Assembly (NCBI GenBank): GCA_001029775.1
Contig: CP011215.1
Location: 32,148-96,147, forward strand
Reading direction: 5' to 3'
Source: Candidatus Campbellbacteria bacterium GW2011_OD1_34_28
GTDB taxonomy: Bacteria; Patescibacteriota; Minisyncoccia; Phycocordibacterales; UBA12079
DNA length: 64,000 nucleotides
Position numbers and translations under genes: made by a program
Notes under the pieces: generated by a model
What the model was told of the DNA's origin: nothing
The model's database searches: none
What the model saw: only the letters and a program-made list of their open reading frames with translations
Part shown: in pieces, positions 8,290 through 28,400 of the stretch
Position numbering within the stretch: position 1 is the stretch's first letter
Layout of the letters: every line of letters starts with the position of its first letter

Positions 8290-8600
8290 TTATACTTGAT
8301 TTTCTGAAGCCCTGCCTCTTCTCTTCCAGGAAAGAGGCAGGGATTCACGAAGTTATTTTGGATTGCTTTGTCGTTTCGTTTCACTCCACTCCTCACAAAG
8401 ACGACGAAGTTGTCGTCTTTGTGAGGAGCTTGCGACGAAGCAATCCACGCCGTCCGTTCGTCGTTCTGGATCGCTTCGCTACCGCTCGCGAAGACGAAGT
8501 TTTGCTCCACAAAACTTCGTGACGAATTTCCGCAGGAAATTCGTCTTTGCGAGCGAAGCGAAGCAATCCACGTCGTTCATTTGTCTTCGTTACTATCGAC
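8290..8600. repeat. GC-rich hairpin-dense intergenic repeat element, copy 2
   Basis: Hairpins ccctgcctct..agaggcaggg, the 17-bp stem ctcctcacaaagacgac-gaagtt-gtcgtctttgtgaggag, gaagttttg..caaaacttc and gacgaatttcc-gcag-ggaaattcgtc, plus the family words gcgaagcaatccacgtcg and tctttgcgag. Confidence 0.6.
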
Positions 8601-11600
8601 TATAAACTATCGACTGTCGTCGTAGCTGTCGGTTCTACCACAGGATCTGTTGTCGTTGCTGGTTCTGTTGTTACAGCTGTTGAATCTTCAACAAGTACTG
8701 TTCTTGTACTTGTTGAAGTATTTGTTCCATCAAACGCTGTGTAAGTAACTGTGTATTCTCCGGCGATTGTTGTGTCTACTATATCTAGGTCGTGAGTATC
8801 TACTATTAGAGAGTTTCCTTGGTAGTCTACTGCTGTAGCGCCTAGATCAATATAGTTGCTGTTTATTTCTACTACGGCTGGGTTGTTGCCTGTGATTGTT
8901 ATAACTGGTGCGATAGCATTCTGGATTGCTTCGCTATCGTTCGCAGAGACGGAAGATGTGTTAGAAGAAGTATCTGTGTTTTCCAACAAACTTCTCAACT
9001 GATCTTTGTTTATACACACATCATCGATACAAATTTCTTGTCTCGCTTTTATTTTATCCGCAACCAATTCTGTAACCGAAGCCAAAACATTTGAAATTCT
9101 TTCATCCAATGTGTTTATCAATTCTTGCATTGCTTTTACAATCACCGAAGTCAATTTTGGATAATCAAGGTTCATGATAGTACCTTTGTCGTCGTGTCCG
9201 ATGACTTCGGGAATTAACAAGTCAACTTCTTCTGCGATGAATCCGATTTGAGTAGATGATGAATTAATAAAGTCTGATTTCCAATTGAATGATACAGGGC
9301 GTAATTGGAGTACTGTGTCTAGACCGTATGTTAGATCGTTTATGTTTGTTTTGAATCTCTCTGATGATGCTCCACAGGCGGTTGTTGATGTGGCTAGTTC
9401 TCCGCTGGTTGATATACAAGCGTAATAACCTGTTCCGTCGTTGGTTAGACCGGTGAAAGCAGCTGTTCCGTTTACGGAAAGAGTTCTCCATGGGGTGGTG
9501 GTGCCGATGCCGACGTTGCCACCGAAATAGTTCGTGCCACCTTGCGAATATATAGAATAATTATTTGAAGATCCTTTATTTGGAGTTTCTATGTATAGCT
9601 GATATTGATTGGCAAGGACACTGGCGCCTCCATTTTCATAATTATTAAGATAGATATTGTAAGCATTCGTCACATTACCAGACGATCCCCAAACGCCAGA
9701 ACCGGCTTCAGAATATATTCCATAGATATTGCCAATGTTAGCGGTGGATCCGGACATAGCTCCGCCATAAGCTGCTACTTTCATACCGTATATATTTGAT
9801 ATATTTGATACTCCTGCATTTTCCAATCCTGAAGCGGCAAAACCACTTGATTCTGTTCCAATTATAGTTGTCACATCTCCATTTCCATAGAAAGTTCCCT
9901 TGTTAACGGATCCCTTAATTTCTTGGGTATCGCCGGAACCATAAACTCTGGCATCAGAAAATGCTCCATAAACCCAATTAATATTACCATTTCCATCATG
10001 ATATGCTGTTGTTCTAATTCCTTGCATTCCTGAACTAGAAAAATTCGTATTATCTCCAAAAGGTGTTGAAATAGCATTATTAATACCAATACCTTGTCCT
10101 TCTTTTTCAATGCTCAGCTTCCCCAACGGACTCATCGTCCCCACACCCACATTCCCATTATTCAACACAGCAAACAAAGAAGTGGTTGCACTCGCTGTAG
10201 AGCTGGCGATATTGAACAAAGTTGTGTTTGTTTCTCCGTTGTTTGCGTGGATTGATAGTTTTGCAAAAGGTGAGGTGGTGCCGATGCCTATTTTGCCACT
10301 TGATAGAGTCGTTCCCGTTCCATTTATTCCTGTTCCAAAAATTAAGTTTCCAATGTTTAATTGATTTGAGGCGGTGGCAGAAGGAGCATCAACATCGTAA
10401 CCTATAACAAGGTTGTTTGATCCTGTTGTTAAATTATTACCTGCTTGGTATCCAAGAAAAATATTATTTGAACCAGAAACCAATGAACCTGCATTGTATC
10501 CAATACCAACACTCCTAGAAGGTGATCCCCCATAAGCCAAGGAATTTATGCCAATAGCGACATTATAACTTCCTGTACTGTTGTTATATAATACTGAATC
10601 TCCTATTCCAACGTTAGAAGCTCCTGTAGTATTTGAATAAAGTGACATATCTCCCACAGCGCTGTTCAATCCGCCTGTTGTATTTGAAACCAAAGATTCT
10701 GTTCCGAGAGCAATATTATAACCTCCGGAAATATTTGCATACAAAGACATTGATCCGCTTGCTATGTTACGAGAACCACCAATATTTGAAAATAAAGCAT
10801 AAGATCCTGAGGCTATATTATTATTTCCAGTCGTATTTGAATAAAGGGATGTGTATCCGCTGGCAACATTGTTGTATCCTTCGGTATTGAAATGCAAAGA
10901 CTTGTACCCAAAAGAAGCATTGAGATAGCCTGTCGTATTTGAATATAGCGACTGATATCCTACCGCTGCGTTTCTATAACCAGAAGTATTTGAACGCAAT
11001 GACTGATAACCAATACCAACATTATAATTATCTGTTAGATCATCACTTCTTCCAGCCTCATATCCAAAATAAGTAGAACCACCCAAACCGGTTTGAGAAA
11101 CCCTTCCATACACGGATAACTTTGCTCCTGCGTTTTCTGAGGTTGTTGTTCCAATACTAACTCTATTATTTACTGAATCAATAACCAGAGTATCTGTATC
11201 AAAAACAGCACTGTCTATTGTCAAATTTGAAATATTTCCGTTAGTAAAGTTTAATTCTGTTCCTGAAACATTTGAGGTGCTAATGTTTGAATCATAAATT
11301 TCAACCCCACCCAAATTATCTATATCGTTGGTAGCAGAGATCACTTGATATGTGTTGGTGATTTGAGCATTTGTATTTGATGAGAGTTTGTAGATTTCAC
11401 TTCTTAATTCGTTGTTTAGTTTTTGAAGATCTTCCAGTGTGACGCCTGGTGTTTGGATTACTCTTTCTACTACGGTTTCTTTTATTATTTCTCTGATTGG
11501 GTTTGTAACGATGGTGGTGGTCTTTGGGGTTGCGGGAACTGAAGGAACATTTTCCGAGATCTCACCTCTGTCCGCTTCGCTCTCCGAGGAAAGACCTCGG

Positions 11601-11869
11601 GAAATTTCGTCTTCGTTTGTGCTATTGGTTGTTAGCTGTCCACTGTCAGCTGTTTCTTCAGCGGAGCTGAAAAAACCCGAGATTGTTCTGTATACATAAA
11701 CAGCCGTCTTTTCAACGGTGTTCAAATTGGAAATATTTTGAACTTCACTCGCTTCAACTTTTTGTAGAAAAAGTAAATTATCATCATTTGCTAGAAAACC
11801 ACCTCCCAACATCAACATAACGGCAAATACGATAAAAAACTGTTTTATAAATTTATCAATAAGATTCAT
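8600..11869 (-). CDS. Giant secreted surface protein 1 (1089 aa), built like a phage tail fibre. Signal anchor, block shared with giant 2, 14-15-aa xNTAxGYxSLxSNTTG repeat array, intramolecular-chaperone (Peptidase S74) domain, coiled coil, DUF5011-type Ig domain, Thr/Pro-rich tail.
   Basis: N-terminal signal MNLIDKFIKQFFIVFAVMLMLGGG. About 20 tandem repeats of the type NAAVGYQSLYSNTTGYLNASFGYKSL. ASSERFKTNINDLTYGLDTVLQLRPVSFNWKSD...IGFIAEEVDLLIPEVI matches the tailspike C-terminal intramolecular-chaperone consensus. ITITGNNPAVVEINSNYIDLGATAVDYQGNSLIVDT...GEYTVTYTAFDG is DUF5011-like. Confidence 0.8.
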   Translation of the reverse strand: MNLIDKFIKQFFIVFAVMLMLGGGFLANDDNLLFLQKVEASEVQNISNLNTVEKTAVYVYRTISGFFSSAEETADSGQLTTNSTNEDEISRGLSSESEADRGEISENVPSVPATPKTTTIVTNPIREIIKETVVERVIQTPGVTLEDLQKLNNELRSEIYKLSSNTNAQITNTYQVISATNDIDNLGGVEIYDSNISTSNVSGTELNFTNGNISNLTIDSAVFDTDTLVIDSVNNRVSIGTTTSENAGAKLSVYGRVSQTGLGGSTYFGYEAGRSDDLTDNYNVGIGYQSLRSNTSGYRNAAVGYQSLYSNTTGYLNASFGYKSLHFNTEGYNNVASGYTSLYSNTTGNNNIASGSYALFSNIGGSRNIASGSMSLYANISGGYNIALGTESLVSNTTGGLNSAVGDMSLYSNTTGASNVGIGDSVLYNNSTGSYNVAIGINSLAYGGSPSRSVGIGYNAGSLVSGSNNIFLGYQAGNNLTTGSNNLVIGYDVDAPSATASNQLNIGNLIFGTGINGTGTTLSSGKIGIGTTSPFAKLSIHANNGETNTTLFNIASSTASATTSLFAVLNNGNVGVGTMSPLGKLSIEKEGQGIGINNAISTPFGDNTNFSSSGMQGIRTTAYHDGNGNINWVYGAFSDARVYGSGDTQEIKGSVNKGTFYGNGDVTTIIGTESSGFAASGLENAGVSNISNIYGMKVAAYGGAMSGSTANIGNIYGIYSEAGSGVWGSSGNVTNAYNIYLNNYENGGASVLANQYQLYIETPNKGSSNNYSIYSQGGTNYFGGNVGIGTTTPWRTLSVNGTAAFTGLTNDGTGYYACISTSGELATSTTACGASSERFKTNINDLTYGLDTVLQLRPVSFNWKSDFINSSSTQIGFIAEEVDLLIPEVIGHDDKGTIMNLDYPKLTSVIVKAMQELINTLDERISNVLASVTELVADKIKARQEICIDDVCINKDQLRSLLENTDTSSNTSSVSANDSEAIQNAIAPVITITGNNPAVVEINSNYIDLGATAVDYQGNSLIVDTHDLDIVDTTIAGEYTVTYTAFDGTNTSTSTRTVLVEDSTAVTTEPATTTDPVVEPTATTTVDSL

Positions 11870-12076: not shown

Positions 12077-15000
12077 CTATTGACTATCAACTACCGGTTC
12101 CGTCGTTGTAGCTACAGAATCTAGACTATCGACTATTGCCTCTTCAACAAGTACTATTCTCGTACTTGTTGAAGTCAGTGTTCCATCAAACGCTGTGTAA
12201 GTAACTGTGTATTCTCCTGCTGTTGTTGTGTCTACTGTATCTGCGTCTATTGTATCTACTATTAGAGAGTTTCCTTGATAGTCTACTGCTGTAGCGCCTA
12301 GATCAATATAGTTGCTGTTTATTTCTACTACGGCTGGGTTGTTGCCTGTGATTGTTATTGTGGGAGGAGTGGTGTTTGAAGGTTCTGCTGTTGGCTGTTG
12401 GCTGTTGGCTGTATTAGTGTTATCAACACCCTCTAAAGCATTCAATCTAGCTTCCAATTCATTCAATCTATTTTCAAGACCAGAAACTTTTGCGATCAAT
12501 TCTTGTGTCTTGTTCCAAATTTCCTTAATCGCATTTACCAAAACCGAAGTCAGCTTTGGATAATCAAGGTTCATGATAGTACCTTTGTCGTCGTGTCCGA
12601 TAACTTCGGGAATTAACAAGTCAACTTCTTCTGCGATGAATCCGATTTGAGTAGATGATGAATTAATAAAGTCTGATTTCCAGTTGAAAGATACAGGGCG
12701 TAGTTGAAGGACTGTGTCTAGACCGTATGTTAGATCGTTGATGTTTGTTTTAAATCTTTCTGACGATGCTCCACAAGCGGTTGTTGATGTGGCTAGTTCT
12801 CCTGTTCCAGCGTTGGCACAGACATAATAGCCAGTGCCGTTGTTAGCAAGACTTTGAAACGCTACTGTTCCATCTACGGTTAGTTTGTAATTTGGAGTAG
12901 TTGAACCGATTCCGATGTTGCCGGTTGAGATGGTTGTGCCGTTTCCATCTATACCTGTCCCAAAGATTAGATTTCCAATTGTCATTGTGTTATTACTTGT
13001 TGCCGTTGGTGAATCAATGTTGTAACCAATAACTATGTTGTTGTCTCCCGTTGTTAAGGTCTCTCCAGCCTGATAGCCAAGTAATATATTATTATCTCCT
13101 GTCGTTAAATTAACCCCAGATCGATACCCAATAATAACACCCCCCTGATTGTAGGATACTGTGCTAACACCTTGACCGGCTTGATAACCGATCGCAACAG
13201 TAGAAGTAGCTGATCCATTATATCGATTTGCCTGAGTACCTATTGCCACATTTGAAGAACCTGTTCGATTACTACGAAGAGATTCAGACCCAATTGAAGT
13301 ATTGTAAGTTCCTGTAGTATTTAAAGACAGCGAATCATATCCGAGAGCGCTATTATAATTTCCTGTGGTGTTATTAGTTAAAGAAAAACCGGCGGCCATA
13401 TTATAAGAACCTGTTGTATTTGCACCCATGCTTAAACCTCCAACGGCTGTATTATAAATTCCTGTTGTATTGACATCCAAGGCACCAGCTCCAACCGCGG
13501 TATTATAATAACCTGTAGTATTGGCTTTCAATGCTTGATAGCCTACAGCAGTATTACTACTACTTGTTGTTGCTAAATAAAGTGCTTCGTAACCCAAAGC
13601 GGTGTTATTTAGAGCACCACTCAACAAAGCGTTTCCTGCTCCAATACCGACAGAAACAGAACGACTGGTTGAAGAGGCAAAAAGTATTTTGCTTCCCCCA
13701 ATAGAATATCCTCCATTTGTTGTATCTGTAGAATTAAATGCTGTTGCAGAAATCGATGAGGTTGCTGTTAAACTATTGACGGTTAAATCACCAGATATCC
13801 ACGCACTACCTTCTACACTCAACTTTCTGAAAGGTGAGGTGGTGCCGATGCCCACATTCCCCTTCAAAGCCGTAGTTGTGATACTGTCATTTCCAAGAAC
13901 AACAGAGTTGCTTCCTACTCCTGTGGCATCGTAACCGATTACAATTTCGTTTTGGTCATTGTCAGCAAGGGCTTTGGTGTTGTAGCCTAAGAATGTATTG
14001 TAGTCTCCTGTTGTGTTACCTGTTGAGCCGTTGGCAATGTAGCGACCTGCATTGTATCCAAAGGCTATATTATAATGACCTGTGGAGTTAGCATAGAGAG
14101 AAGAATAACCAACTGCAGTGTTATACATACCCGTAGAGTTGGCATAAAGAGAAGTGTACCCACTTGCAGTGTTGTATCTGCCTGAAGTGTTTGAAAAGAG
14201 AGATTCATAACCACTTGCAGTGTTGTGATAACCGGAGGTGTTGGACTGAAGAGAAGAATATCCAATCGCGGTGTTGTGATAACCGGTGTTGTTGTTATAC
14301 ATAGAGCTACCACCATAAGCAGTATTACGGTAACCTGTGGTATTAAGGTATAAAGTAAAAATTCCACTTGCGGTGTTACCATAACCAGTATTATTGGTGA
14401 AAAGAGCATTAACACCATTTGCAGTGTTAAAGTAACCTAGAGTATTTGCATAAAGAGCACGGTAACCTGTTGCGGTGTTATAACTGCCATGACTTGCGCT
14501 TGTCGCCGTGCTACCCATCGTAAGATTTCCCGCTTCTTCTCCCACAAAAGTATTCTGTCCTGTTGTCGTCACAGTTCCGTTGTTTCCATAATTGAAATTA
14601 TGAATGAAACTTGTTCCGTTTTTTGAGATTACCCCGTATTGATTTGTATTAGTGGTGTTGTCCAAATTCAAATTACCTTGATAGATATCGAGTTTTGCAG
14701 AAGGAGTCATTGTTCCTATTCCTGTATACCCAGAAGGGCCAGCAAAAAAAGAAATGAAATCTTGAACTCCATCGTTTGTTCCTATTAAAACACTATTGGC
14801 AATATTATTATTTAAAGAACCTCCTCCTGATCCACTATAGCCAAAACCTATAGTAATTGATTTCGTCGCCGAAGCCTTCGCTGTGCCTCCTAAAACAACT
14901 GAATACTGACCGGCAGCTGTTGCCCCTCCTTTTCCAAAAACAGAAGAATACTGCCCACTAGCAATACCTGAACCAACAACAATAGACCCTTCACCTGTTG

Positions 15001-18000
15001 CACTACTACTTTCTCCTAATGCTATGGATTTCCATCCACTTGCAGAACCATTAATCATGGAAACATTAACGCCACCAGAAGAGTTAACCTTAAATCCATT
15101 AGACACTTCTAGTTTGGCTGTCGGACTCGCCGTCCCAATGCCCACATTCCCCGTACTCCTATCCACCACCAATTTGTTTGTTCCCACAGCAAAACCACCA
15201 GCAAAAGTAGAAGTTGCTGTTGTTGAAGTTGCGTTGAAATAGTCGGCAACGACATCTCCGACAACGGAAAGTTTTGCGAAAGGTGAGGTGGTGCCGATGC
15301 CGACATTTCCTCCTAAAAACACCCCTGCATAATTGTTGATTGCTCCTGTAGAAGCATTCACCAATAACCCGTAGGCATTTGTTACTACGGCTTGGCTTGT
15401 GCTCACTGGTTTAGTTGGCACAAGAATACTATAAGCATTTGTAATAGAAACATTTGCACTTGTGCTTTTCCAAGGCCATGCGGTGACTAAACTTGCTGCT
15501 TCTGTAACCACTTGATTTGCAGTAGTGCTATACAGTTGCATATTACCCAATTTAGTTCCGTATATTGTATCGTAAGTCGTTGGATCAGAACCAGATAGAG
15601 TTACAAGATGATCACGCAATGTTATTCCCGTAACGCCCGAAGATGTCAATGTGGTGACGGGATTAATATCAAGAAATGATGCAGGGGCGGTAGTATTGAT
15701 TCCTAAATATCCAGATGAATTTATTCTTGCTCTTTCAAATGTATTAGCTGAACTACTTGTTGTCCAAAAACTAAGGTATCCCTGTGCATTTCCACCGGTC
15801 GAATTTTCCTTTGCTCCTTTTATTGAACCAAAAGTCCAAAAACCAGTTGAACCGGAGTATACACCACCCAATCCGATGCTTCCCCCTTTATTAATCGCGT
15901 TTGTATCAGTAGACATTACAAGCATATTACCGGCATATTGGTCATTGCTACCCAATACTAAATCGCTTCCACGTATATCAAGCGTACGCTGTGGGTTTAT
16001 CGTACCAAGGCCCACAACAGGTGTCGCGAGGTTAATATTTGAAGTCAAGCCATTAACAACCAATCCTGAAAACTGAGGAGAATCAGTCGTTCGCAGACTC
16101 TGGCTCAATGAGACATTGCCACCACTAATTGAGAGATTTCTGACAGTTTCATTTTTAATCCAAGTGGTCCCTATATATATTGAATTTGCTAAAGCAATAT
16201 ACCCGGTCGGAGTTAGATGCAAATAATCAGCGAGAGCATACGAGGCAAGAAGGGTGTCAGGATTGGTTGGATCTTCGAGCGCAGAATAAGCATCTATCCT
16301 ATAGTCAACATCGGATGCCATGTTAAGTATCCAATTATTAACATCTTCTAAAACTACCTGACGAGCTTCCGTCCATGAAGTGCTAGTTTTAAACGGAGTA
16401 ATCGTAACAGCCACAACCTTAGATCCGTTGGCGTTAGCCGCAGTGTACATAGCTTGTAAATTACTTTCAATAGTGGCGGCAGATGCGTTTGCTGCTATAT
16501 CATTTATACCTCCCAGGATAATTACATATTCAGCATCGTCAACTACTACATCACCAGAAAAACGCGCTGCCATTTGTGTAGTAGTATTGCCTCCAACGCC
16601 TTTGCTATTCACATTCCATAATGCCCCCAGTAAATCAGCCAATGCACTTCCATAGTTTGTTAAGCTATCACCTATAGCATATACTTGATGAGTTTGAAGA
16701 ATGTTCACTTTATTCAGAGAAATATCTCCGTTTACATCAAACTTCGCTCCCGGACTCTCCGTCCCCACCCCCACATTCCCTGTAGAATAATCAACAACAA
16801 ATTTGTTTGTTCCAACAGCCAAACCTCCTGCAAATGTAGAAGTTGCTGTGGCTGATGTTGCTGTAAAGTAAGGGGCAGAAATTGAACTTGTGGCAGTAAT
16901 TGAATTAGCGGTTAAATCACCACTGATCCACGCATTACCTTCTACACTCAACTTTCTGAAAGGTGAAGTCGTCCCAATCCCAACATTTCCACTTGCTCTC
17001 CAAACATCTGTTCCGTTGGATGTCCAATTACCAACGGCTGAACCTGATAAAAGATTACCACCCCAGTATAAATCATTGGAGATGTTGTAAAGTCTGTCGG
17101 TTGTGATTGATGGAGCTGATATTGGTGCAAGGTATGTTGCTCCGTTTACTGAAAGAGTATCTGAAGGTGTTGTTGATCCGATGCCTACACGGTTGTTGAT
17201 TGAATCGATGTAAAGAGTGTCTGTGTCAAAGATTGTGTCTCCTGATACGGTAAGAGTGTTTAGAGTGGTGTTGCCTGTTACAGTTAGATTGCCAGAGTAT
17301 GTTCCACTGGTTGCAGAAATAGGGCCACCGTATGTAGAGGTAGCTGTGCCTGTGACAGTTAGGTTTTGAATTGTTCCGTTGGTAAAGCTTAGTTCTGTTC
17401 CTGAGACATTTGAGGAACTGATGTTTGAGTCGGTGATTGTGACACTACCCAGATTGTCGATGTTGTTAGTAGCAGAGATTACTTGGTAGGTGTTGGTGAT
17501 TTGAGCATTTGTATTTGAAGAGAGTTTGTAGATTTCACTTCTCAGTTCGTTGTTTAGTTTTTGAAGATCTTCCAGTGTGATGCCGGATGTTTGGATTACT
17601 CTTTCTACAACAACTTCTTTGATTATTTCTCTGATTGGGTTTGTAACGATGGTGGTGGTCTTTGGAGTTGCGGGAACTGAAGGAACATTTTCCGAGATCT
17701 CGCCTCTGTCCGCTTCGCTCTCCGAGGAAAGACCTCGAGAAATTTCGTCTTCGTTTGTGCTATTGGTTGTTAGCTGTCCGCTGTCAGCTTCGTCAACGCT
17801 ATCAGCTGTTGGCTGTAAGCTATCAGCTTCGTTACTAAACAAATTATTAACAAACTTATACCAAACAATCGCAAACTGTTCCACAGGACTTGCTGTTTCG
17901 TAGACTGCTAAAGCTAGGTTGTTTACACCCGTCTTCGCGAACGAAGTGAAGCGACCTGCCTCGCCGGCAGGCAGGTCCATGTCGTCCGTTTTCTGGATTG

Positions 18001-18541
18001 CTTCGTCATAAACTCCTCGCAAAGACGACGAACCAGAGACAATTTTGTTTTTTAATCCATCTAAATAATCTAAAAAGTCTTGTGTATATGTATCTACTGT
18101 TTTTACATTTTTACTGTCTTTTATTTCTTTGATGGGAGAATTGTCATTGCTATCAAGAATTTGTGTTTTGAACAAATCTCTTTTTTCTGCACCAACTTTG
18201 TATGTTATTTCTTTTGTGTTTTTTACCGCAGAAAAAACAGCCTCCCCTGTTTTGTTGAGTTGGTTTAATATGTCTCCTGAAAAGTAACCTGCTCCGATTA
18301 AGAGAATCGCTAAAACAGCCGTTGACAATGCTCTCACTGGCAAAATCATCGGCTTGTTTGTTTTGTTTTTATATTCAAAAAGTTTTTCTAATTCAACAAA
18401 ATATTCCCCTTCTACCTTTGTAAAATCTATCTTTTCTTCACGGCACAGGTCTTTAATATGTTCTTCATCCAATTCTATGATTTTTGTCGCTTTTTTTGTT
18501 GAAAGATACCTTTTGCCATTTAAAAATATCTCACTTTGCAT
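12077..18541 (-). CDS. Giant surface protein 2 (about 2150 aa). N-terminal HTH-like cytoplasmic segment plus TM anchor, block shared with giant 1, repeat arrays, embedded SGNH/GDSL esterase domain, tail-fibre NTA-GY repeats, Peptidase S74 intramolecular chaperone domain, coiled coil, DUF5011 Ig domain.
   Basis: Track ORF is 12077..18589; the preferred start is MQSEIFLNGKRYLS (18541). TM segment LSTAVLAILLIGAGYF. A 110-aa block (ADSGQLTTNSTNEDEISRGL...NAQITNTYQVISATN) is nearly identical to giant 1. The SGNH motifs are AIGDSLT, GGNTT, GINDI and DYLHLT. The C-terminal 230 aa are nearly identical to giant 1. Confidence 0.8.
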   Translation of the reverse strand: MQSEIFLNGKRYLSTKKATKIIELDEEHIKDLCREEKIDFTKVEGEYFVELEKLFEYKNKTNKPMILPVRALSTAVLAILLIGAGYFSGDILNQLNKTGEAVFSAVKNTKEITYKVGAEKRDLFKTQILDSNDNSPIKEIKDSKNVKTVDTYTQDFLDYLDGLKNKIVSGSSSLRGVYDEAIQKTDDMDLPAGEAGRFTSFAKTGVNNLALAVYETASPVEQFAIVWYKFVNNLFSNEADSLQPTADSVDEADSGQLTTNSTNEDEISRGLSSESEADRGEISENVPSVPATPKTTTIVTNPIREIIKEVVVERVIQTSGITLEDLQKLNNELRSEIYKLSSNTNAQITNTYQVISATNNIDNLGSVTITDSNISSSNVSGTELSFTNGTIQNLTVTGTATSTYGGPISATSGTYSGNLTVTGNTTLNTLTVSGDTIFDTDTLYIDSINNRVGIGSTTPSDTLSVNGATYLAPISAPSITTDRLYNISNDLYWGGNLLSGSAVGNWTSNGTDVWRASGNVGIGTTSPFRKLSVEGNAWISGDLTANSITATSSISAPYFTATSATATSTFAGGLAVGTNKFVVDYSTGNVGVGTESPGAKFDVNGDISLNKVNILQTHQVYAIGDSLTNYGSALADLLGALWNVNSKGVGGNTTTQMAARFSGDVVVDDAEYVIILGGINDIAANASAATIESNLQAMYTAANANGSKVVAVTITPFKTSTSWTEARQVVLEDVNNWILNMASDVDYRIDAYSALEDPTNPDTLLASYALADYLHLTPTGYIALANSIYIGTTWIKNETVRNLSISGGNVSLSQSLRTTDSPQFSGLVVNGLTSNINLATPVVGLGTINPQRTLDIRGSDLVLGSNDQYAGNMLVMSTDTNAINKGGSIGLGGVYSGSTGFWTFGSIKGAKENSTGGNAQGYLSFWTTSSSANTFERARINSSGYLGINTTAPASFLDINPVTTLTSSGVTGITLRDHLVTLSGSDPTTYDTIYGTKLGNMQLYSTTANQVVTEAASLVTAWPWKSTSANVSITNAYSILVPTKPVSTSQAVVTNAYGLLVNASTGAINNYAGVFLGGNVGIGTTSPFAKLSVVGDVVADYFNATSTTATSTFAGGFAVGTNKLVVDRSTGNVGIGTASPTAKLEVSNGFKVNSSGGVNVSMINGSASGWKSIALGESSSATGEGSIVVGSGIASGQYSSVFGKGGATAAGQYSVVLGGTAKASATKSITIGFGYSGSGGGSLNNNIANSVLIGTNDGVQDFISFFAGPSGYTGIGTMTPSAKLDIYQGNLNLDNTTNTNQYGVISKNGTSFIHNFNYGNNGTVTTTGQNTFVGEEAGNLTMGSTATSASHGSYNTATGYRALYANTLGYFNTANGVNALFTNNTGYGNTASGIFTLYLNTTGYRNTAYGGSSMYNNNTGYHNTAIGYSSLQSNTSGYHNTASGYESLFSNTSGRYNTASGYTSLYANSTGMYNTAVGYSSLYANSTGHYNIAFGYNAGRYIANGSTGNTTGDYNTFLGYNTKALADNDQNEIVIGYDATGVGSNSVVLGNDSITTTALKGNVGIGTTSPFRKLSVEGSAWISGDLTVNSLTATSSISATAFNSTDTTNGGYSIGGSKILFASSTSRSVSVGIGAGNALLSGALNNTALGYEALYLATTSSSNTAVGYQALKANTTGYYNTAVGAGALDVNTTGIYNTAVGGLSMGANTTGSYNMAAGFSLTNNTTGNYNSALGYDSLSLNTTGTYNTSIGSESLRSNRTGSSNVAIGTQANRYNGSATSTVAIGYQAGQGVSTVSYNQGGVIIGYRSGVNLTTGDNNILLGYQAGETLTTGDNNIVIGYNIDSPTATSNNTMTIGNLIFGTGIDGNGTTISTGNIGIGSTTPNYKLTVDGTVAFQSLANNGTGYYVCANAGTGELATSTTACGASSERFKTNINDLTYGLDTVLQLRPVSFNWKSDFINSSSTQIGFIAEEVDLLIPEVIGHDDKGTIMNLDYPKLTSVLVNAIKEIWNKTQELIAKVSGLENRLNELEARLNALEGVDNTNTANSQQPTAEPSNTTPPTITITGNNPAVVEINSNYIDLGATAVDYQGNSLIVDTIDADTVDTTTAGEYTVTYTAFDGTLTSTSTRIVLVEEAIVDSLDSVATTTEPVVDSQ
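17925..18045. repeat. GC-rich repeat element, copy 3, embedded in-frame inside giant gene 2
   Basis: cttcgcgaacgaagtgaagcgacctgcctcgccggcaggcaggtc...ggattgcttcg...tcgcaaagacgacgaa shares the gacctgcc..ggcaggtc hairpin and family words with copy 4. It is translated as ...DDMDLPAGEAGRFTSFAKTG... with no stop. Confidence 0.55.
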
Positions 18542-18639
18542 ATTTATCTTTAGCCAAATTATACCAATAATTAAGGCTAATTTAAACAAAAAAGGGTGCG
18601 TAAGTGTTGATAAATAAATTGAAGCTTATAGCTCTATAG

Positions 18640-22495: not shown

Positions 22496-25400
22496 TTATC
22501 TACCGCGAATATCTCCAACCCAACCAAATATATCTTCAACATTTGACATAATTACCTGGAATACAGACTCTCTGTGTCTAGGAGTAAGGATTGTATAAAC
22601 TTTTGACAAACTTACATTTCCTCCAGAGTCGGTGCTTTCTACCCTAAAGCTGTAAACTGTTCCTAGATCAAACGAAGTAATTACAACCACGTGTTTCTTC
22701 GTATATGTGCTGTCTAATTTTGTCATATTGGCTAGTGGTTTGTCCATACCAATAATTCCTTTTTGGTAATAAACTTGACTTGTTGAAGGTTCGTTAGTTA
22801 ACCAAGTGATGATGCTTTGAATTTTACTTTCTTTACCTGTAGAAATAGCTGAATCTGTCTTTACGGAATAAATCAAAGGAGGGAGGTCATCTTCTGATGT
22901 AGAAAAAGTAGGAATCTTTTTGCTTGTGATAGAACCGTCTACACCCTTGCTGGTCAATTCAACATCATAAAATACTCCTGCTTCCAAATTGTCCAATTCA
23001 ATTTCGTGAATAAAACTATTTCTTTTATCCGAAATTGTTGTTGTTTCCTCGATAGAAAGAGTATTATTTCTGTACGGTGTATATCGAACAGTTCCATCTG
23101 CCTCTACGTTTGTAACCCACTGAAAGACAACTGATTCGTTTGAATTTTTCTTTATTGTATAAGAAGAAATTTCCAATTCTTCAGATCTTGTTTTGAAAGT
23201 AAAGTCAGGAGAGTACCCGATTGTTCCTACAGAGGCTTTGCTTCTTACTTGATAATGATAATTCGTCTCTGGTTCCAAATCATAAATCATTACTGTGTGA
23301 TCTGTTGTGCTTGTAGAATTTCCACCTATTACCTGTACATATCCCATCTCATCAGAATTTGTTCCTTTGAAATCTTTTTCCTGAGCAATCGCAACAAAAG
23401 AACCCGCTGGCTTGTCAGTTCTCCAAGAGATGGTTGCTGTCTTGGCTGTTGTCACAACCTTTGGTTCTCCGCTCATAAGAGGTGCAGAGATTCTTGTAGA
23501 CAAATATTCCAAATTAGTAAACTGTTCTGAAACTGTTGTCTCCAAAGTTCCAAGAGAAACTTGAGAAGAAATCTTGAGAGCCAATCCCATTGCCTGTCGC
23601 ACAGTAGAAACAAACAATTCATCCAATTCTTCTGCTGTCATTGTCTTTGACAAAGAGTCATCGCCTTCATTATTTTTTTCCAACTGATCAACAAACGATA
23701 TTGTCTCAAAACTCTTCTCTGGAGAACGATAAACATTTCCGAAAGAATCATTTCCTGCAACCTTAAAGAAATATGTTTTTTCTGGAAGAAGATAATTCAA
23801 ATTTACTTCGTGAATATTACCCATGCTGAGACTTCCTATCGTCGTTCCATAACTATTTGTCAAACCGTACTCGACAAAACCATTAGCGCTTTCATCAGTT
23901 TTCCATCTAATTTTTGCCGAAGTATCTGTTATATTCAAAATTTCTATATCTGAAAATCCTGGAGCCGTAACATCTGCATCACTTTGTCTTCTACTTACAG
24001 CGGCGCCCTGTCTAGCTGCCAATTCTCTTGCCAAAACTTCCGACTCTAAAGAAAGTTCTTCTAGGGTTGTAAAATCTGCTTCATCAGAAACAACACTGTT
24101 TCCATTAGCATCTGAGGAATAAACCCTGTAATAATATTTTGTGCTGGTTGCTAAGTTGATAAGGGCAACTGTGTGATCACGGTTATAATTGACCGCCAAA
24201 GAAGTACTTGTCGCATAATCGCTTATGTCATTACCACTTTCTGGACCAAAATAAACTCTCGCATTTGCATCTTCGTCAGTCGTCCACTGAATAATAGCAG
24301 TCGTATCTGAAATAGAAGAACTATCCGGACCTGTTGTTATAGTCGGAGAGGTTGTATCATTGTTTGTTGTAAAACTATAATAATCTCCAGAAAAATTGTC
24401 TAATGCAATATTACCTTCAGCATCAACAGACTTAACATAGAAATAATAGGTTGTTGCCTGATCCAACCCTGTAATATCTGCAGAGTGCGCAGTTGTAAGA
24501 TTAACTGAACCTTGAAATTCTGAGGAAACACTAAGATCGGGGTTAAGAGAATAAACAACAGCAGTATCAGCAAGAATGTCAGTATTCCAAACTATTGTTA
24601 CCATATTATTATCTACATGAGAAACAAGAACATCAGAAATCACCGCTCCTGGATTTGTTGTAAATGTATATCCTGGACCATCGTTATCGTCAGTATCTGA
24701 ATTTCCTGACAAGTCGGAAGACATTGCTTGGAAATAATATGTTGTATCTGGTGTTAACCCAGTAAGAAAAATTTGGTGCTGTCCGATACCGCTTTCTGAA
24801 TCTGCCATGGTTGAAACACCGACTTCGCCAGAAAATTGATATGGGATTGTTGAATAACCCACAGTTGAACGAGATACCTCGTCAGTATCCCAAGTTACCA
24901 CTGCACTCTGTGTTGTAACTGATCCAACAGAAACATTAGAAATGGTCGGAGGAACATTGTCTCCACCTCCCTGTCCATCAGCGAGTTCGCTCACTTCACT
25001 TGAATAATATGATGATGTACCGTAAGTGTCTTCTGTTGAAATCTTGTAATAATAAGTTGTGGATGTTGCAATTCCGCTATGTACATAATAGTTTGTTGTA
25101 CGAACATTTACTCTATCTAACAAAGAATAGTCGGTTCCGTTTGTAGAAGACCAAATATTGTATCTTCTGAAATTTGTGATATTTGTCGTCGCAGGTTTCC
25201 ATGCCAAAAACATATAGTAACTTCCTGTTACATAGTTTGCGACATCATACGCTTGTAAATTCAAAGCTGTTTCCATTGTCTCAACAGATGCACTAACAGT
25301 ATTTCCCAAAGCATCTCTAAATTGAACATAGGCAATGTCAGGGTCAGTCTCGAGAGTAATTGTGGAAGAACTTTGGTAAGCTTCCCAAGCACCATCGCTA

Positions 25401-28400
25401 TAGTCCGACGCCAATCCGATCTTCATTTCAATAGAATTATCGTCTGACACATCAAAATTTAATGTAGCAGGAGATGTTGTTGCTGTTACAGTAACATAAG
25501 TAGAAGATGTTGCAGGATCTTTTGTATCCAAACTAAACGATGAAGATGTCACGGTCTGACTATTTGATGAACAGGAAGAAACCAATCTTATCTGCATCGT
25601 TTCATTATATGTTCCGTCGTAGTCAATTTTTGCATCCCAAATAATTTGTTTAGCGGTGCTAGAAGAAACACCAGTTCCATAATCACCAGACAAACTGGTT
25701 GCATCCAGCCAACTTGCACCATCCCAATATTTTAACGAAACACTTGATACAGCAGAGCATCCTTCATAAATAGAATAATCATAACCAACGATTACTTTTC
25801 CTAAAGTTCCCGAATCTGTTGATTGAGAAGATGTCAAATTTGAAATTGCAACAGTCGTCAGATTAAAATCGGCTGTCATAGAGCTCGCTATATTATTGGC
25901 AGCTTCGTTGTCGTTTACGGTCACTCTAATTTTTGCTGTAGTTGTTGAAGTATCCAAACCTATCTGTAACTGAGGATCCCATGTCATCGTATAAGTTGAA
26001 TAGCTGGCCTCATCTACTGCTTTGTTGTCAGTAGATGTAGCATTCATTCCGGCTGTTATGTTACCCCATGTCGAACCACCATCAAGAGAATATTCAAATG
26101 AAGGTGTTAATTCATTTGGACTATTTGTTCCTGTGGTTGAGTCTATGTCTCTAACAGAATAAACAATTTCAACAATTCCATCTGTTCTTTGTACTGCAGT
26201 GGCTTCACTTTGGAAATCAGGAGTTTCGTTCACTACATATTCAAGACCCGCGCTAGTTACCATCGGCACAGCACCGTTATCAGATTCCAATGTTATTTTG
26301 TATTGCATCCATTGATCGGCCGTCATATCGGTAAATTCTGTTGAAACATCCGTAATACTGCAGACAATGTCTGTTCCTGTTTTTACACAACTTCCCACAT
26401 CACTTTGAAAAAAACCTCCATCTACATCATCATCTCCTAAAAAGTTCGACGCTGTGTCTGTGTCAGGGGCAGGTCCGTCTGTAGAGGTAGCAGTTCTCAA
26501 CTGAAACTTGACTGCAGTTCCAGCAGGCAAAGATTCGTTCTCGGACCAATTTATTTTTGAAACAATATTTACGATATCATTACTGTTATACCAGCTTGAA
26601 AGAAGTGTCCCTGTTGTAGTTGTGTAATTTATATAATTAAAAGAAATATCTTGTAGTTGAGGCGTTACAGAAATATCTGTGGTTGAAAAAACAACCTGAT
26701 ATTGAATATATTGATCGGTGTTGTTAACACAACTAGAAGCAGACGCAATATCCGTGATGCCTTTATCACTTCGACTGAAAGCGGGACAACTAGAAATGGC
26801 GGTTTCCCCCGAACAAGAAGCATCGTCGCAAGTTCTAACTTTTATTTGTAAATCTGTATCAGTCAAAATAGAGCCAGATTCATTTTCTGTCCAATCGATT
26901 GTTGTTAAACCTGTGTTAGCTCCCAAATTTTGAATATCTGATGTATATACACCCGAAGATTCATACTCAACCACGATGTTCAGTGAAGAAGTGTTTGCCG
27001 TCGGAGCAGTAGTTCCAGAAATATTACTAGATTTCACATGGATGCGTCCTACACCTCCATCCCCACCATCAACACTTCCACAATCATCACTTGTACCATC
27101 ACCCGCTCCACCAGAAGCCGTAACATGTGAAGCCGTGCCAAGAACTACGGAATTACCTGTCAGATAAATAGATCCTCCCGATCCGCCCCCGTTAGGAGAG
27201 GTGTGCAAAGTCGGACTTGTTCCATTGCTGACAATGTTTCCAACGGAGGAATTTATAGAACCTGCACCAATATACACTATACCACCACCATCTCCACCAG
27301 TATCTCCAAAATTGGCAGCCGTACCTCCTGCGCTTCCAAGATAAAATTTGCTTAAATCTGCAATTCCATAAATAGATCCTCCAACAGCAGGAGCCATCCC
27401 TTGTCCTACAGCTCCATATCCTCCACCTGCACCAGTTGCAATAAAACAAAAAGGATCATCTAAATAATATGCCCCACCTCCTCCAAGATTAGCACTCGTA
27501 GAAACTGCACCTAGTTTACTATATGATTCTCCTTGCACAGCAGTAACAGCAGATCCCCTAAATCCTTTTCCTGTCATATTAATACTTCCGCCACTTCCAA
27601 CTGTTACAGCACCACTCGCCAAAAACGCCAATACTCCACCTTTGGATCCATTCCAATCGCTGGCTGTCAAAACACCTCCCGAAATTGTTAGGTCGGTATA
27701 ACGAGGAACTCTTTGCAACATCACTCTTTGGTTTGTTGTTGCTGTTCCTATGTTGGTATCGTCGGAATCAGTACCGTCTCCATAATATTTTGTTTTGTTG
27801 CTAGCGAAAGTAACTGTATTTGAAGAAACAGACAGTACTTCAAAGATTTCATAATTTCCAACATTTCCATAGTTTGAGGCTGTTCCTTGCAAATTTATTA
27901 ATAAAACAGAATCTCCTGCGGATAAACAGCCAGCGGAAGGAGATGTTGACAAAGTAGCCGTGTTTGAAGAAAGTGCTGTAGCACTATAAGAAACTCCGTC
28001 TCCTCCATCGGCACAACTTCTTCCACTTGCAAGAGTATCAGTATTTATATTTACAGTTCCGCTAGAAATAGTAACGCTACCGTCTGCGTAAGTTCCTTCG
28101 GGAATTTCTTCCAACTCAATGCTTCCTGCGGTTTGAGTTCTGCTTGTACTGCTATCTGTCCCACCAGAAAAATCGGTATCAGTATGAGTGTCTTCTGCTT
28201 TGTCTATTCTATTAAAATTAATTGTTGCAGAAGATAGCGCAGATGTCTGCGATAAATCCGACGATGCACCAAAAGTCACTTTGTATTGAACATATCTATT
28301 TCCATCTGTAACACAAGGATCGCTAGATATATCATTTCCACTTGTAATATTTGAACAGCTTGTCCAATTATTAGCACCAGCCATATCTGTACTAGTTCCT

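Follow-up and report, generated by a model that had tools for sequence, protein, structure and literature searches.

The genes of two very large proteins, giant 1 and giant 2, lie in a 64-kb stretch of DNA, referred to here in its full length as the window. It comes from a member of the Patescibacteria (CPR), which are ultra-small bacteria, and the source of this one is groundwater. Judging by flanking-gene content, the host genome is cellular and of the Paceibacterota/Campbellbacteria type: the two genes lie among adk, map, ndk, obg, secA, eno, ppdk and murB, with adk, map, obg and an ABC/FtsX transporter as the immediate neighbours. Relatives were found among the GTDB representatives in related Paceibacterota and Saccharibacteria MAGs, and in a related Paceibacterota MAG the giant adjoins adk and map as well, so that synteny is conserved. 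The identical giant 1 protein recurs on 7 groundwater contigs in public databases. In the 64-kb window, neither the Rfam nor the tRNA scan gave any match. The giants have a GC content of 40-43%, compared with 33-35% in the flanks. Both giants are encoded on the minus strand (read on the plus strand, the frame contains many stop codons), and the features identified in them are listed below in window coordinates.

8600..11869, minus strand: giant 1, 1089 aa, N-anchored phage-fibre-like surface protein with subterminal S74 domain (ORF, Pfam, PHROG)
11783..11851, minus strand: giant 1 hydrophobic helix, aa 7-29, membrane or signal anchor (Kyte-Doolittle scan)
11226..11651, minus strand: giant 1 copy of the N-terminal stalk-base module (blastn vs giant 2)
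10613..11023, minus strand: giant 1 array of 17-residue repeats, NxAxGxxSLxSNTxGxx, aa 283-419 (regular 17-aa spacing)
9374..9418, minus strand: giant 1 Cys818...Cys832 loop, directly before the predicted cleavage site
9062..9367, minus strand: giant 1 S74 intramolecular-chaperone domain and C-terminal helix, aa 835-936
9365-9367 and 9350-9352, minus strand: giant 1 codons of Ser835 and Lys840, respectively; predicted scissile bond between Ala834 and Ser835
8969..9034, minus strand: giant 1 Cys947/Cys952 beta-hairpin and short helix, ICIDDVCINKDQLRSLL (AF2)
8690..8902, minus strand: giant 1 Ig-like domain PF16403, aa 990-1060 (Pfam)
8603..8689, minus strand: giant 1 Thr/Pro/acidic low-complexity tail, aa 1061-1089, ending in VDSL
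12077..18589, minus strand: giant 2, 2170 aa (ORF, Pfam, blast vs giant 1)
18275..18337, minus strand: giant 2 single transmembrane helix, aa 85-105 (hydropathy)
17365..17789, minus strand: giant 2 copy of the N-terminal stalk-base module (blastn vs giant 1)
16199..16675, minus strand: giant 2 GDSL/SGNH hydrolase domain inside the fibre, aa 639-797 (PF13472, E=3.3e-20)
12431..12766, minus strand: giant 2 S74 domain and heptad coiled coil, aa 1942-2053 (Pfam)
12764-12766 and 12749-12751, minus strand: giant 2 codons of Ser1942 and Lys1947, respectively; predicted scissile bond between Ala1941 and Ser1942
12146..12358, minus strand: giant 2 Ig-like domain PF16403, aa 2078-2148 (Pfam, E=7.2e-9)
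12080..12145, minus strand: giant 2 short Thr/Pro/acidic tail, aa 2149-2170, ending in VVDSQ

A Kyte-Doolittle hydropathy scan revealed one N-terminal hydrophobic helix in each giant and none elsewhere. In giant 2 this helix is preceded by a predicted cytoplasmic N-terminal domain of ~80 aa, which has a weak, below-cut-off match to HTH_17 (E=0.0095). A sortase or other C-terminal anchor was considered and rejected, as the giants have no LPXTG motif and their C-terminus is not hydrophobic. The fibre bodies match phage tail-spike and virion-structural PHROGs; the repeat array of giant 1 is hit by phrog_23837 (E=1e-53) and by the tail-spike family phrog_4636 (E=3.5e-25). All three motifs of the GDSL/SGNH domain (GDS, GGN and DxxH) are present in giant 2. 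While NCBIfam holds no model for giant 1 or giant 2, databases already name such proteins “tail fiber domain-containing protein”.

Giant 2 is a paralogue of giant 1 with a mosaic build: the two have the N-terminal stalk-base, S74 and Ig modules in common and differ in the middle. The stalk-base modules are 89.7% identical over 426 nt (blastn; 65% identity in blastp), the S74 DNA modules (275 nt) 93.5%, with 15 synonymous and 3 non-synonymous differences, and the Ig DNA modules (226 nt) 91.6%. Giant 1 has four Cys residues in total (818, 832, 947 and 952). The C...C pair upstream of SSxRFK is part of the family consensus. The second pair forms the hairpin of the AF2 model (strands at model residues 147-149 and 152-154, helix at 156-168, block-mean pLDDT 70-84); giant 2 has no hairpin of this type, and the motif is present in ~46% of the closest 150 representatives.

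The sequence-only reading of this DNA had placed a Peptidase S74 domain in both giants on the strength of a 73-aa peptide. The peptide is indeed there and identical in both (giant 1 aa 834-906, 9152-9370; giant 2 aa 1941-2013, 12551-12769; minus strand), and the intervals proposed for the domain, 9110-9370 and 12515-12770, were correct to within ~40 nt, the coding strand being the minus strand. In the profile search that had been suggested as a check, PF13884 (Peptidase_S74) matched both proteins above its gathering cut-off of 22, in giant 1 at aa 835-889 (E=6.3e-13, 49.3 bits) and in giant 2 at aa 1942-1996 (E=1.3e-12, 48.2 bits). Position 1 of the profile corresponds to Ser835 and Ser1942, and Lys840 and Lys1947 follow five residues on. 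The Ser/Lys dyad is thus present in both giants; it is also kept in 53 of the 55 homologues that cover the site. Taken together, the S74 matches and the dyad are far beyond chance. When the PDB was searched with a single sequence (phmmer), only the Ig domain was reached; S74 structures required a profile of 64 homologues, which then matched the phage tail fibre 8jov (1.4e-17), 6f45 (1.3e-13), the MYRF ICA 7dc3 (1.4e-9) and Bdellovibrio Bd3182 8ojn (8e-7), the last of these through VGIGTTxPxxxLxV loops. The domain of the giants has the ICD fold, and its identification as an S74 intramolecular chaperone is supported by the sequence profile, by the profile matches to solved structures and by this fold.

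S911/K916 in endoNF and S587/K592 in MYRF constitute the catalytic dyad, the two residues that neither protein can do without (PMC8326128). On the basis of that study and of the 64-homologue profile alignments, we equate the dyad of the giants with the known ones. In the consensus SDxxxK, an Asp follows the nucleophile (PMC10769870), whereas the motif of the giants is S-S-E-R-F-K, with a Ser at this +1 position. Most Patescibacterial relatives have this Ser in common and a minority keep SD. Since the +1 Asp is absent from the residues found essential (PMC8326128), the missing Asp neither excludes S74 membership nor proves activity. The S74 segment has a dN/dS of 0.05-0.13 at dS up to 0.89, and four genes are identical over residues 1-56 of the 89-aa alignment, a stretch that includes the cleavage site.

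What follows the S74 domain needed some correction. The “coiled coil” described there turned out to be largely the C-terminal helix of the S74/ICA domain itself: the last profile position of the phage family phrog_28992 aligns to giant 2 aa 2042. This helix, which in the S74 family builds a triple coiled coil and thereby drives trimerisation, is predicted to span 34 residues (model residues 104-137; monomer model) and shows clear heptads in giant 2 (LENRLNELEARLNALE). Beyond it, giant 1 has ~150 aa and giant 2 ~120 aa of truly extra sequence. The DUF5011 Ig-like domain and the Thr/Pro-rich tail claimed for this region are found in both giants, the former as PF16403 (Bact_surface_Ig-like), the present name of that family. 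The S74 domain of the giants is therefore not the extreme C-terminus. In phages it is, as had been stated: 0 of 227 matching phage records run past the S74 part.

Relative to phages, the arrangement is thus as unusual as the sequence-only reading had called it, but among the closest relatives it is not, since 122 of the 150 closest cluster representatives (best 150 of 35,850 matches) carry >100 aa after S74. A subterminal S74 domain is the norm in this Patescibacteria group and not a one-off. The extensions are heterogeneous: low-complexity tails like that of giant 1 end most relatives, many extensions consist of low-complexity acidic/Thr/Pro sequence only, and just ~17% of the same closest representatives (best 150 of 35,850 matches) have the Ig domain. 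Some relatives carry 2-3 S74 copies per chain with intact S...K motifs, as read by eye. For giants 1 vs 2 alone, the Ig domain gave a dN/dS of 0.75 and appeared near-neutral; this was overturned by adding three more genes, which brought the values against relatives to 0.17-0.31. The Ig-like module is under purifying selection and hence does something. PF16403-type Ig domains are found in surface proteins and glycan-active enzymes.

In characterised members of the family, cleavage takes place N-terminal to the catalytic Ser. The bond cut in MYRF lies between P586 and S587 (PMC8326128), and that in Bd3182 precedes S782, where the exchange S782A abolishes self-cleavage (PMC10769870). Due to this position of the cut, the predicted released fragment includes the S74 domain; instead of the ~170 aa estimated earlier, the giant 1 fragment would comprise 255 aa (27.6 kDa) and that of giant 2 229 aa (24.8 kDa). 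The tested S74 domains with an intact dyad, namely those of endoNF, T5 pb1, MYRF and Bd3182, all self-cleave (PMC8326128, PMC4690869, PMC10769870). By analogy with these proteins, trimerisation, cleavage site and release can be predicted for the giants, and autoproteolysis at the Ser once the chains have trimerised is plausible.

Our main reading, to which we assign a probability of roughly 60%, is that the giants are chromosomally encoded trimeric surface fibres of Patescibacteria, built of phage tail-fibre and tail-spike modules, which cleave themselves and shed a chaperone-Ig cap. Each chain would be exported via Sec and held in the cytoplasmic membrane by its single N-terminal helix, N-in/C-out. 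Outside the cell, the S74 domains and C-terminal helices of three chains would associate, thereby setting the chain register and nucleating the folding of a trimeric beta-helical fibre in C- to N-terminal direction. After trimerisation, Ser835 (Ser1942 in giant 2), activated by Lys840 (Lys1947), would cut the preceding Ala-Ser bond. The mature fibre would then end in a C-terminal tip formed by the loop stapled by two Cys residues (...C-x13/14-C-G-A), and the detached fragment would be a trimeric, acidic assembly of S74 domain, helix, Cys hairpin (giant 1 only), Ig-like domain and Thr/Pro tail. Any role of Ig domain and tail is speculative. The likeliest options are that the Ig domain may aid assembly at the wall, where it would keep the C-termini in place or in solution until the trimer has formed, or may form a shed, glycan-binding cap.

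Phage matches in the fibre body and the S74 domain, together with the elevated GC content, could also indicate that the giants are tail-fibre genes of a phage or prophage and that the region is not really cellular. We consider this extremely improbable. No further phage gene is located nearby, the neighbours being the housekeeping and transporter genes named above, and both giants have N-terminal membrane anchors. IMG/VR viral contigs contained no relative in a single-protein scan, and none of the phage records spans S74 and Ig together. The GC shift can probably be attributed to the Gly/Thr/Ser/Ala-rich composition of the giants. A prophage origin was thus rejected on account of the genomic context, the syntenic locus in another Paceibacterota MAG and the lack of IMG/VR relatives.

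Two further alternatives accept a cellular fibre and differ from the self-cleavage model in the fate of its C-terminal part. Spending a conserved, selected Ig domain on a discarded fragment makes no obvious economic sense, so that a version without cleavage or without dissociation is conceivable, and the Ser in place of the consensus Asp of SDxxxK (PMC10769870) also speaks against the model. S74 might then be a trimerisation and registration module only, with no or rare cleavage, and Ig domain and tail would stay in place as a distal ligand-binding tip. Retention of the extension in 122/150 closest representatives (best 150 of 35,850), purifying selection on the Ig domain, the concentration of giant 1/giant 2 differences in one loop, the surface and glycan-active context of PF16403-type domains and again the +1 Ser would all agree with this. 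However, dispensable catalysis is hard to reconcile with a dyad kept in 53/55 homologues and a cleavage-site segment that is invariant at dS up to 0.89, and every tested protein with an intact dyad cleaves itself; we therefore regard this possibility as unlikely. The cleavage product itself could also be what matters, with the trimeric S74-Ig fragment acting as a secreted or cap-like effector, e.g. a soluble lectin, a decoy or a removable tip mask. As the anchor is N-terminal and no anchor signal follows S74, a cleaved fragment would have no covalent tether; selection on the Ig domain and the family-wide presence of the extension fit as well, and the relatives with 2-3 intact S74 motifs in one chain suggest polyprotein-like processing. 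The extensions are, however, heterogeneous, with an Ig domain in so few of the closest representatives, and a generic physical role suits them better than that of a specific effector, so that we think an effector is quite improbable. The self-cleaving fibre with a shed cap remains our preferred reading.

Host attachment and recognition by Patescibacteria (CPR) are a largely open question, and their tiny genomes devote many kilobases to giant surface proteins. If many of these giants are self-cleaving trimeric fibres of phage type, they would be concrete candidates for host recognition. As a tentative generalisation, which we consider rather unlikely, the S74 domain of Patescibacteria fibres might be subterminal by design: trimer-dependent self-cleavage would shed the cap and unmask a disulfide-stapled adhesive tip for host recognition by these episymbionts, the fibres would be cell-borne counterparts of phage receptor-binding fibres, and relatives with several S74 domains would be processed as polyproteins. 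The phage paradigm does not account for the conserved extension after S74, which may point to a new use of S74 cleavage. A literature search linking S74 or intramolecular chaperones with Patescibacteria, CPR or Saccharibacteria returned nothing relevant. Precedents exist both for cellular S74 fibres, in the Bdellovibrio MAT proteins, and for an internal S74 domain, in MYRF.

Among the known systems, the phage S74 ICDs, such as those of the K1F endosialidase endoNF (3GW6), the T5 L-shaped tail fibre pb1 (4UW8) and the GA-1 neck appendage (3GUD), end their proteins, whereas the giants add 120-150 aa made up of linker, Cys hairpin, Ig-like PF16403 domain and Thr/Pro tail. The chaperone released in phages is a bare domain of ~90-130 aa. 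Phage ICD proteins are located on the virion and have Asp at +1; the giants are anchored in the cell membrane and have Ser. Catalysis in endoNF also needs a stalk residue, Arg897. YadA-like trimeric autotransporter adhesins resemble the giants as long, repetitive surface fibres, the trimer being predicted for the giants. Similarity to YadA_head is weak and below the cut-off in giant 2 (E=0.005) and stronger in the relative P0079 (E=7.7e-12). In place of the YadA-type C-terminal beta-barrel anchor, for which Pfam gave no match in the giants, the giants have an N-terminal TM helix, and S74, not the membrane anchor, is presumably what drives trimerisation. An internal S74 domain has already been described for the MYRF ICA (7DC3). 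There, the C-terminal side is membrane-anchored by a TM helix after the ICA, and an N-terminal DNA-binding trimer is freed inside the cell. In the giants, nothing hydrophobic follows S74; the anchor is on the N-terminal side and the part released, outside the cell, would be the C-terminal one, so that they would be a topological mirror image of MYRF.

The closest parallel in a cell is offered by the S74 subgroup of the mosaic adhesive trimers (MAT) of Bdellovibrio bacteriovorus, e.g. Bd3182 (PMC10769870; PDB 8OJN). Both groups are chromosomal, ~1000 aa or longer, and form mosaic, modular, phage-like fibres (with a predicted trimer in the giants) in a bacterium living on other cells. They also have capping-loop motifs in common (VGxGTxxPxxxL; profile match E=8e-7), with VGxGxxxPxxxL occurring 3 times in giant 1 and 9 times in giant 2. 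MAT S74 proteins end in the S74 domain, while the giants carry the extension. MAT proteins of the diderm Bdellovibrio start with a cleaved signal peptide and a conserved beta-rich N-terminal domain of ~130 aa, whereas the giants of the Patescibacteria have an uncleaved-looking N-terminal TM anchor, with a cytoplasmic pre-domain in giant 2, and a stalk-base module of their own. Self-cleavage of the MAT S74 domain exposes the tip of the fibre, and the same is predicted for the giants. If this is true, the MAT principle would extend to a second, unrelated group of bacteria living on other cells.

The peptide that the sequence-only reading had assigned to a Peptidase_S74 domain (S74), the self-cleaving intramolecular chaperone domain (ICD) of phage fibres, was found at about the place given for it, but on the minus strand and with corrected boundaries; the plus strand at window positions 9110-9370 contains many stops. 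The same 73 residues occur in giant 1 and giant 2, two adjacent large membrane-anchored surface proteins, and both proteins match PF13884 above its cut-off. The S74 domain in these cellular fibre proteins is thus real and had been recognised correctly. The two genes contain the following features (window positions):

8600-11869, minus: giant 1, ORF of 1089 aa
10613-11023, minus: giant 1, array of 17-residue repeats (NxAxGxxSLxSNTxGxx), strict spacing
9152-9370, minus: giant 1, 73-residue peptide, aa 834-906
giant 1 aa 835-889: Peptidase_S74 PF13884 (Pfam E=6.3e-13, 49.3 bits, cut-off 22)
8690-8902, minus: giant 1, PF16403 Bact_surface_Ig-like (Pfam), aa 990-1060
8603-8689, minus: giant 1, short Thr/Pro/acidic tail
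12077-18589, minus: giant 2, ORF of 2170 aa
16199-16675, minus: giant 2, mid-fibre GDSL/SGNH hydrolase, aa 639-797 (PF13472 E=3.3e-20)
~13250-14479, minus: giant 2, array of the same 17-residue repeats, strict spacing
12551-12769, minus: giant 2, 73-residue peptide, aa 1941-2013
giant 2 aa 1942-1996: Peptidase_S74 PF13884 (Pfam E=1.3e-12)
12146-12358, minus: giant 2, PF16403 Bact_surface_Ig-like (Pfam), aa 2078-2148
12080-12145, minus: giant 2, short Thr/Pro/acidic tail

The first position of the PF13884 profile falls on Ser835 in giant 1 and Ser1942 in giant 2, with Lys840 and Lys1947 five residues on. The catalytic Ser-Lys dyad, which had been left to be looked for, is therefore present in both, and its spacing is that of the indispensable dyads of endoNF (S911/K916) and of MYRF, the myelin regulatory factor (S587/K592; PMC8326128). 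It is conserved in 53 of the 55 homologues that cover the site. The S74 consensus is SDxxxK (PMC10769870), whereas the giants, like most Patescibacterial relatives, have Ser in place of Asp after the nucleophile. A profile of 64 homologues was compared with solved structures and matched a phage tail fibre (8jov, 1.4e-17), 6f45 (1.3e-13) and the MYRF ICA (7dc3, 1.4e-9), with a weak match to the GA-1 appendage chaperone (3gud) as well. In these matches the motifs aSSeRFKenI, GFIAEEV and LdYpkL line up. In an AF2 model covering aa 800-1089 of giant 1, block-mean pLDDT values are 89-98 in the S74 core and 89-97 in the Ig domain. Both giants were also aligned with two genes from a related MAG. Over an 89-aa S74 segment, all four share the first 56 residues without a difference, cleavage site included, at a synonymous divergence of up to 0.89; dN/dS of the domain was 0.05-0.13.

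Behind S74, the Ig-like domain and Thr/Pro-rich tail that had been proposed are found in both giants. A coiled coil had also been listed as a separate domain. A long helix does follow the core (34 residues in the AF2 model; heptads in giant 2), but in known ICDs the C-terminal helix belongs to the domain itself and brings about trimerisation (PMC8326128), and this is where the phage family phrog_28992 stops, so the helix is not an extra domain. Truly additional in both giants are a linker, the Ig-like domain and the low-complexity tail; giant 1 alone also has a disulfide-type beta-hairpin plus helix (ICIDDVCINKDQLRSLL) after S74. With a dN/dS of 0.17-0.31, the Ig-like domain is under purifying selection and is thus not junk. 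Amino-acid differences between the two Ig modules (8690-8902 and 12146-12358, minus strand) are concentrated in one segment, DTHDLDIVDTTIAG vs DTIDADTVDTTTAG, which may be a variable loop; the remainder is near-identical. The tails end in VDSL (8603-8689, giant 1) and VVDSQ (12080-12145, giant 2), and the close relatives P0001, P0002, P0076 and P0077 carry EPxATTT-type repeats and then a terminal (I/V)VDS(L/Q). A tag conserved at the C-terminus could explain this, or simply shared ancestry.

The arrangement had been called unusual, which holds in relation to phages but not among the giants' own kin. Of 50,697 phage records searched with tblastn, 227 matched the S74 part only (query residues 9-130) and none covered at least 80% of the S74-to-end query. 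When a 90-aa S74 segment was run exhaustively against 1.84 billion cluster representatives, 35,850 proteins matched at E<=1e-3. Among the best 150 of these, 122 continue for more than 100 aa beyond the S74 match (median 156 aa), most end in an acidic/Thr/Pro/Ser low-complexity C-terminus, ~46% have a Cys-hairpin motif and ~17% at least one PF16403-like Ig domain; all representatives with names are Patescibacteria. An extension after S74 is the rule in this group, and giants 1 and 2 are typical members of a large Patescibacterial protein class. Its annotation in databases goes no further than 'tail fiber domain-containing protein', and we found no description of the class in the searchable literature. 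Sixteen scanned relatives (P0136, P0175, P0180 and 13 others) have 2-3 S74 copies per chain, ~150-560 aa apart, with S...K visible at every copy, which implies either that such fibres are cut internally several times, like polyproteins, or that there are copies which do not cleave. A related giant of Campbellbacteria GW2011_GWD1_35_49 (L018, LBQN01000002.1, 5560-5700) has an in-frame stop and lacks ~35 codons, among them those of the Cys loop and of the SSERFK cleavage site, so that gene callers give a separate 178-aa 'protein' from MNLDYPKL; the cause is either decay to a pseudogene or a collapsed assembly.

That the giants are cellular proteins is borne out by their surroundings. The genes next to them encode adenylate kinase, methionine aminopeptidase, Ndk, Obg and an ABC/FtsX transporter; farther away come SecA, enolase, PPDK, MurB and a surface-glycan cluster, and no phage genes are present in the region. 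Giant 1 occurs in identical form on seven groundwater-metagenome contigs, and in a related Paceibacterota MAG the syntenic position, adjoining adk and map, is taken by a giant of 1508 aa. The closest named relatives belong to Candidatus Campbellbacteria, Paceibacterota, Parcubacteria and Zambryskibacteria; those in Saccharibacteria are more distant. The public contigs shown for the locus (L001-L004, ~42-51 kb) all four stop ~3.3 kb past giant 1, within giant 2, probably because the N-terminal module is repeated in both giants; giant 2 is therefore truncated in public assemblies. The glycan biosynthesis cluster (42580-63939) encodes a Wzy_C O-antigen-ligase-like protein with TPRs, a flippase, NeuB, a radical SAM/SPASM protein, a pyruvyl transferase, a glycerophosphotransferase and several GT1/GT4 enzymes; the stretch at 52-60 kb has a GC content of only 28-30%.

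Giants 1 and 2 each have exactly one hydrophobic helix, which is N-terminal. It spans aa 7-29 of giant 1 and aa ~85-105 of giant 2, where a pre-domain of ~80 aa precedes it. The two proteins should therefore be oriented N-in/C-out, with the S74 end distal. A third giant (22496-29182, minus strand, 2228 aa) contains fn3 / Pur_ac_phosph_N repeats as well as an AgmC_N-like stretch below threshold (71 bits vs a cut-off of 275); it has no S74 domain and is another class of surface giant at the same locus. Giant 2 (~18340-18589) and giant 3 (~28880-29182, both minus) begin with a cytoplasmic domain of ~80-100 aa before a single TM helix. The two domains resemble each other weakly (blastp 3e-5), that of giant 2 has a sub-threshold HTH_17 match (E=0.0095), and the relative P0157 has N-terminal Phage_int_SAM domains; they could be membrane-tethered DNA-binding-like heads on surface giants.

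Giants 1 and 2 are mosaics with three DNA modules in common, namely the N-terminal stalk base (426 nt, 89.7% identity), S74 (275 nt, 93.5%) and Ig (226 nt, 91.6%), and unrelated intervening sequence. The 17-residue repeats match phage PHROGs 23837, 6002 and 4636 (virion structural / tail spike; E down to 1e-57). VGIGTTxPxxxLxV motifs, three in giant 1 and nine in giant 2, align with the capping loops of Bd3182, an S74 member of the Bdellovibrio mosaic adhesive trimer (MAT) fibres (8ojn, E=8e-7). The hydrolase of giant 2 looks intact (GDS, GGN and DxxH motifs) and recalls phage tailspikes with SGNH esterases acting on surface glycans.

The analysis itself establishes what the domain is, together with its dyad, fold, topology signals and context. 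In the most likely mechanism, Sec would export the chains and the N-terminal helix would keep them anchored. By analogy with characterised family members, three S74 domains with their helices would join, set the chain register and nucleate folding of the upstream fibre. Ser835 or Ser1942, activated by Lys840 or Lys1947, would then cleave the Ala|Ser bond before it and free a trimeric acidic fragment, predicted at 255 aa (27.6 kDa) in giant 1 and 229 aa (24.8 kDa) in giant 2; the ~170 aa proposed before had been counted from the wrong domain end. A conserved Cys-x13/14-Cys loop lies directly upstream of the predicted site and, stapled, would form the end of the mature fibre. For the Ig-like domain and tail, we favour a role in assembly or solubility, or as a shed cap. 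Two alternatives are live: the chain may not be cleaved and display the Ig domain at the fibre tip, or the released trimer may itself be the functional product.

The giants may lead to the structures with which CPR bacteria recognise hosts. Their known counterparts are S74-assembled trimeric fibres. In the Bdellovibrio MAT family, S74-terminated trimeric cellular fibres have been demonstrated, and Bd3182 self-cleaves at S782, which S782A blocks (PMC10769870); MYRF is characterised by an S74/ICA domain in an internal position (PMC8326128). In contrast to MAT fibres, in which S74 is terminal, the N-anchored giants have it subterminally, with a conserved extension behind it.
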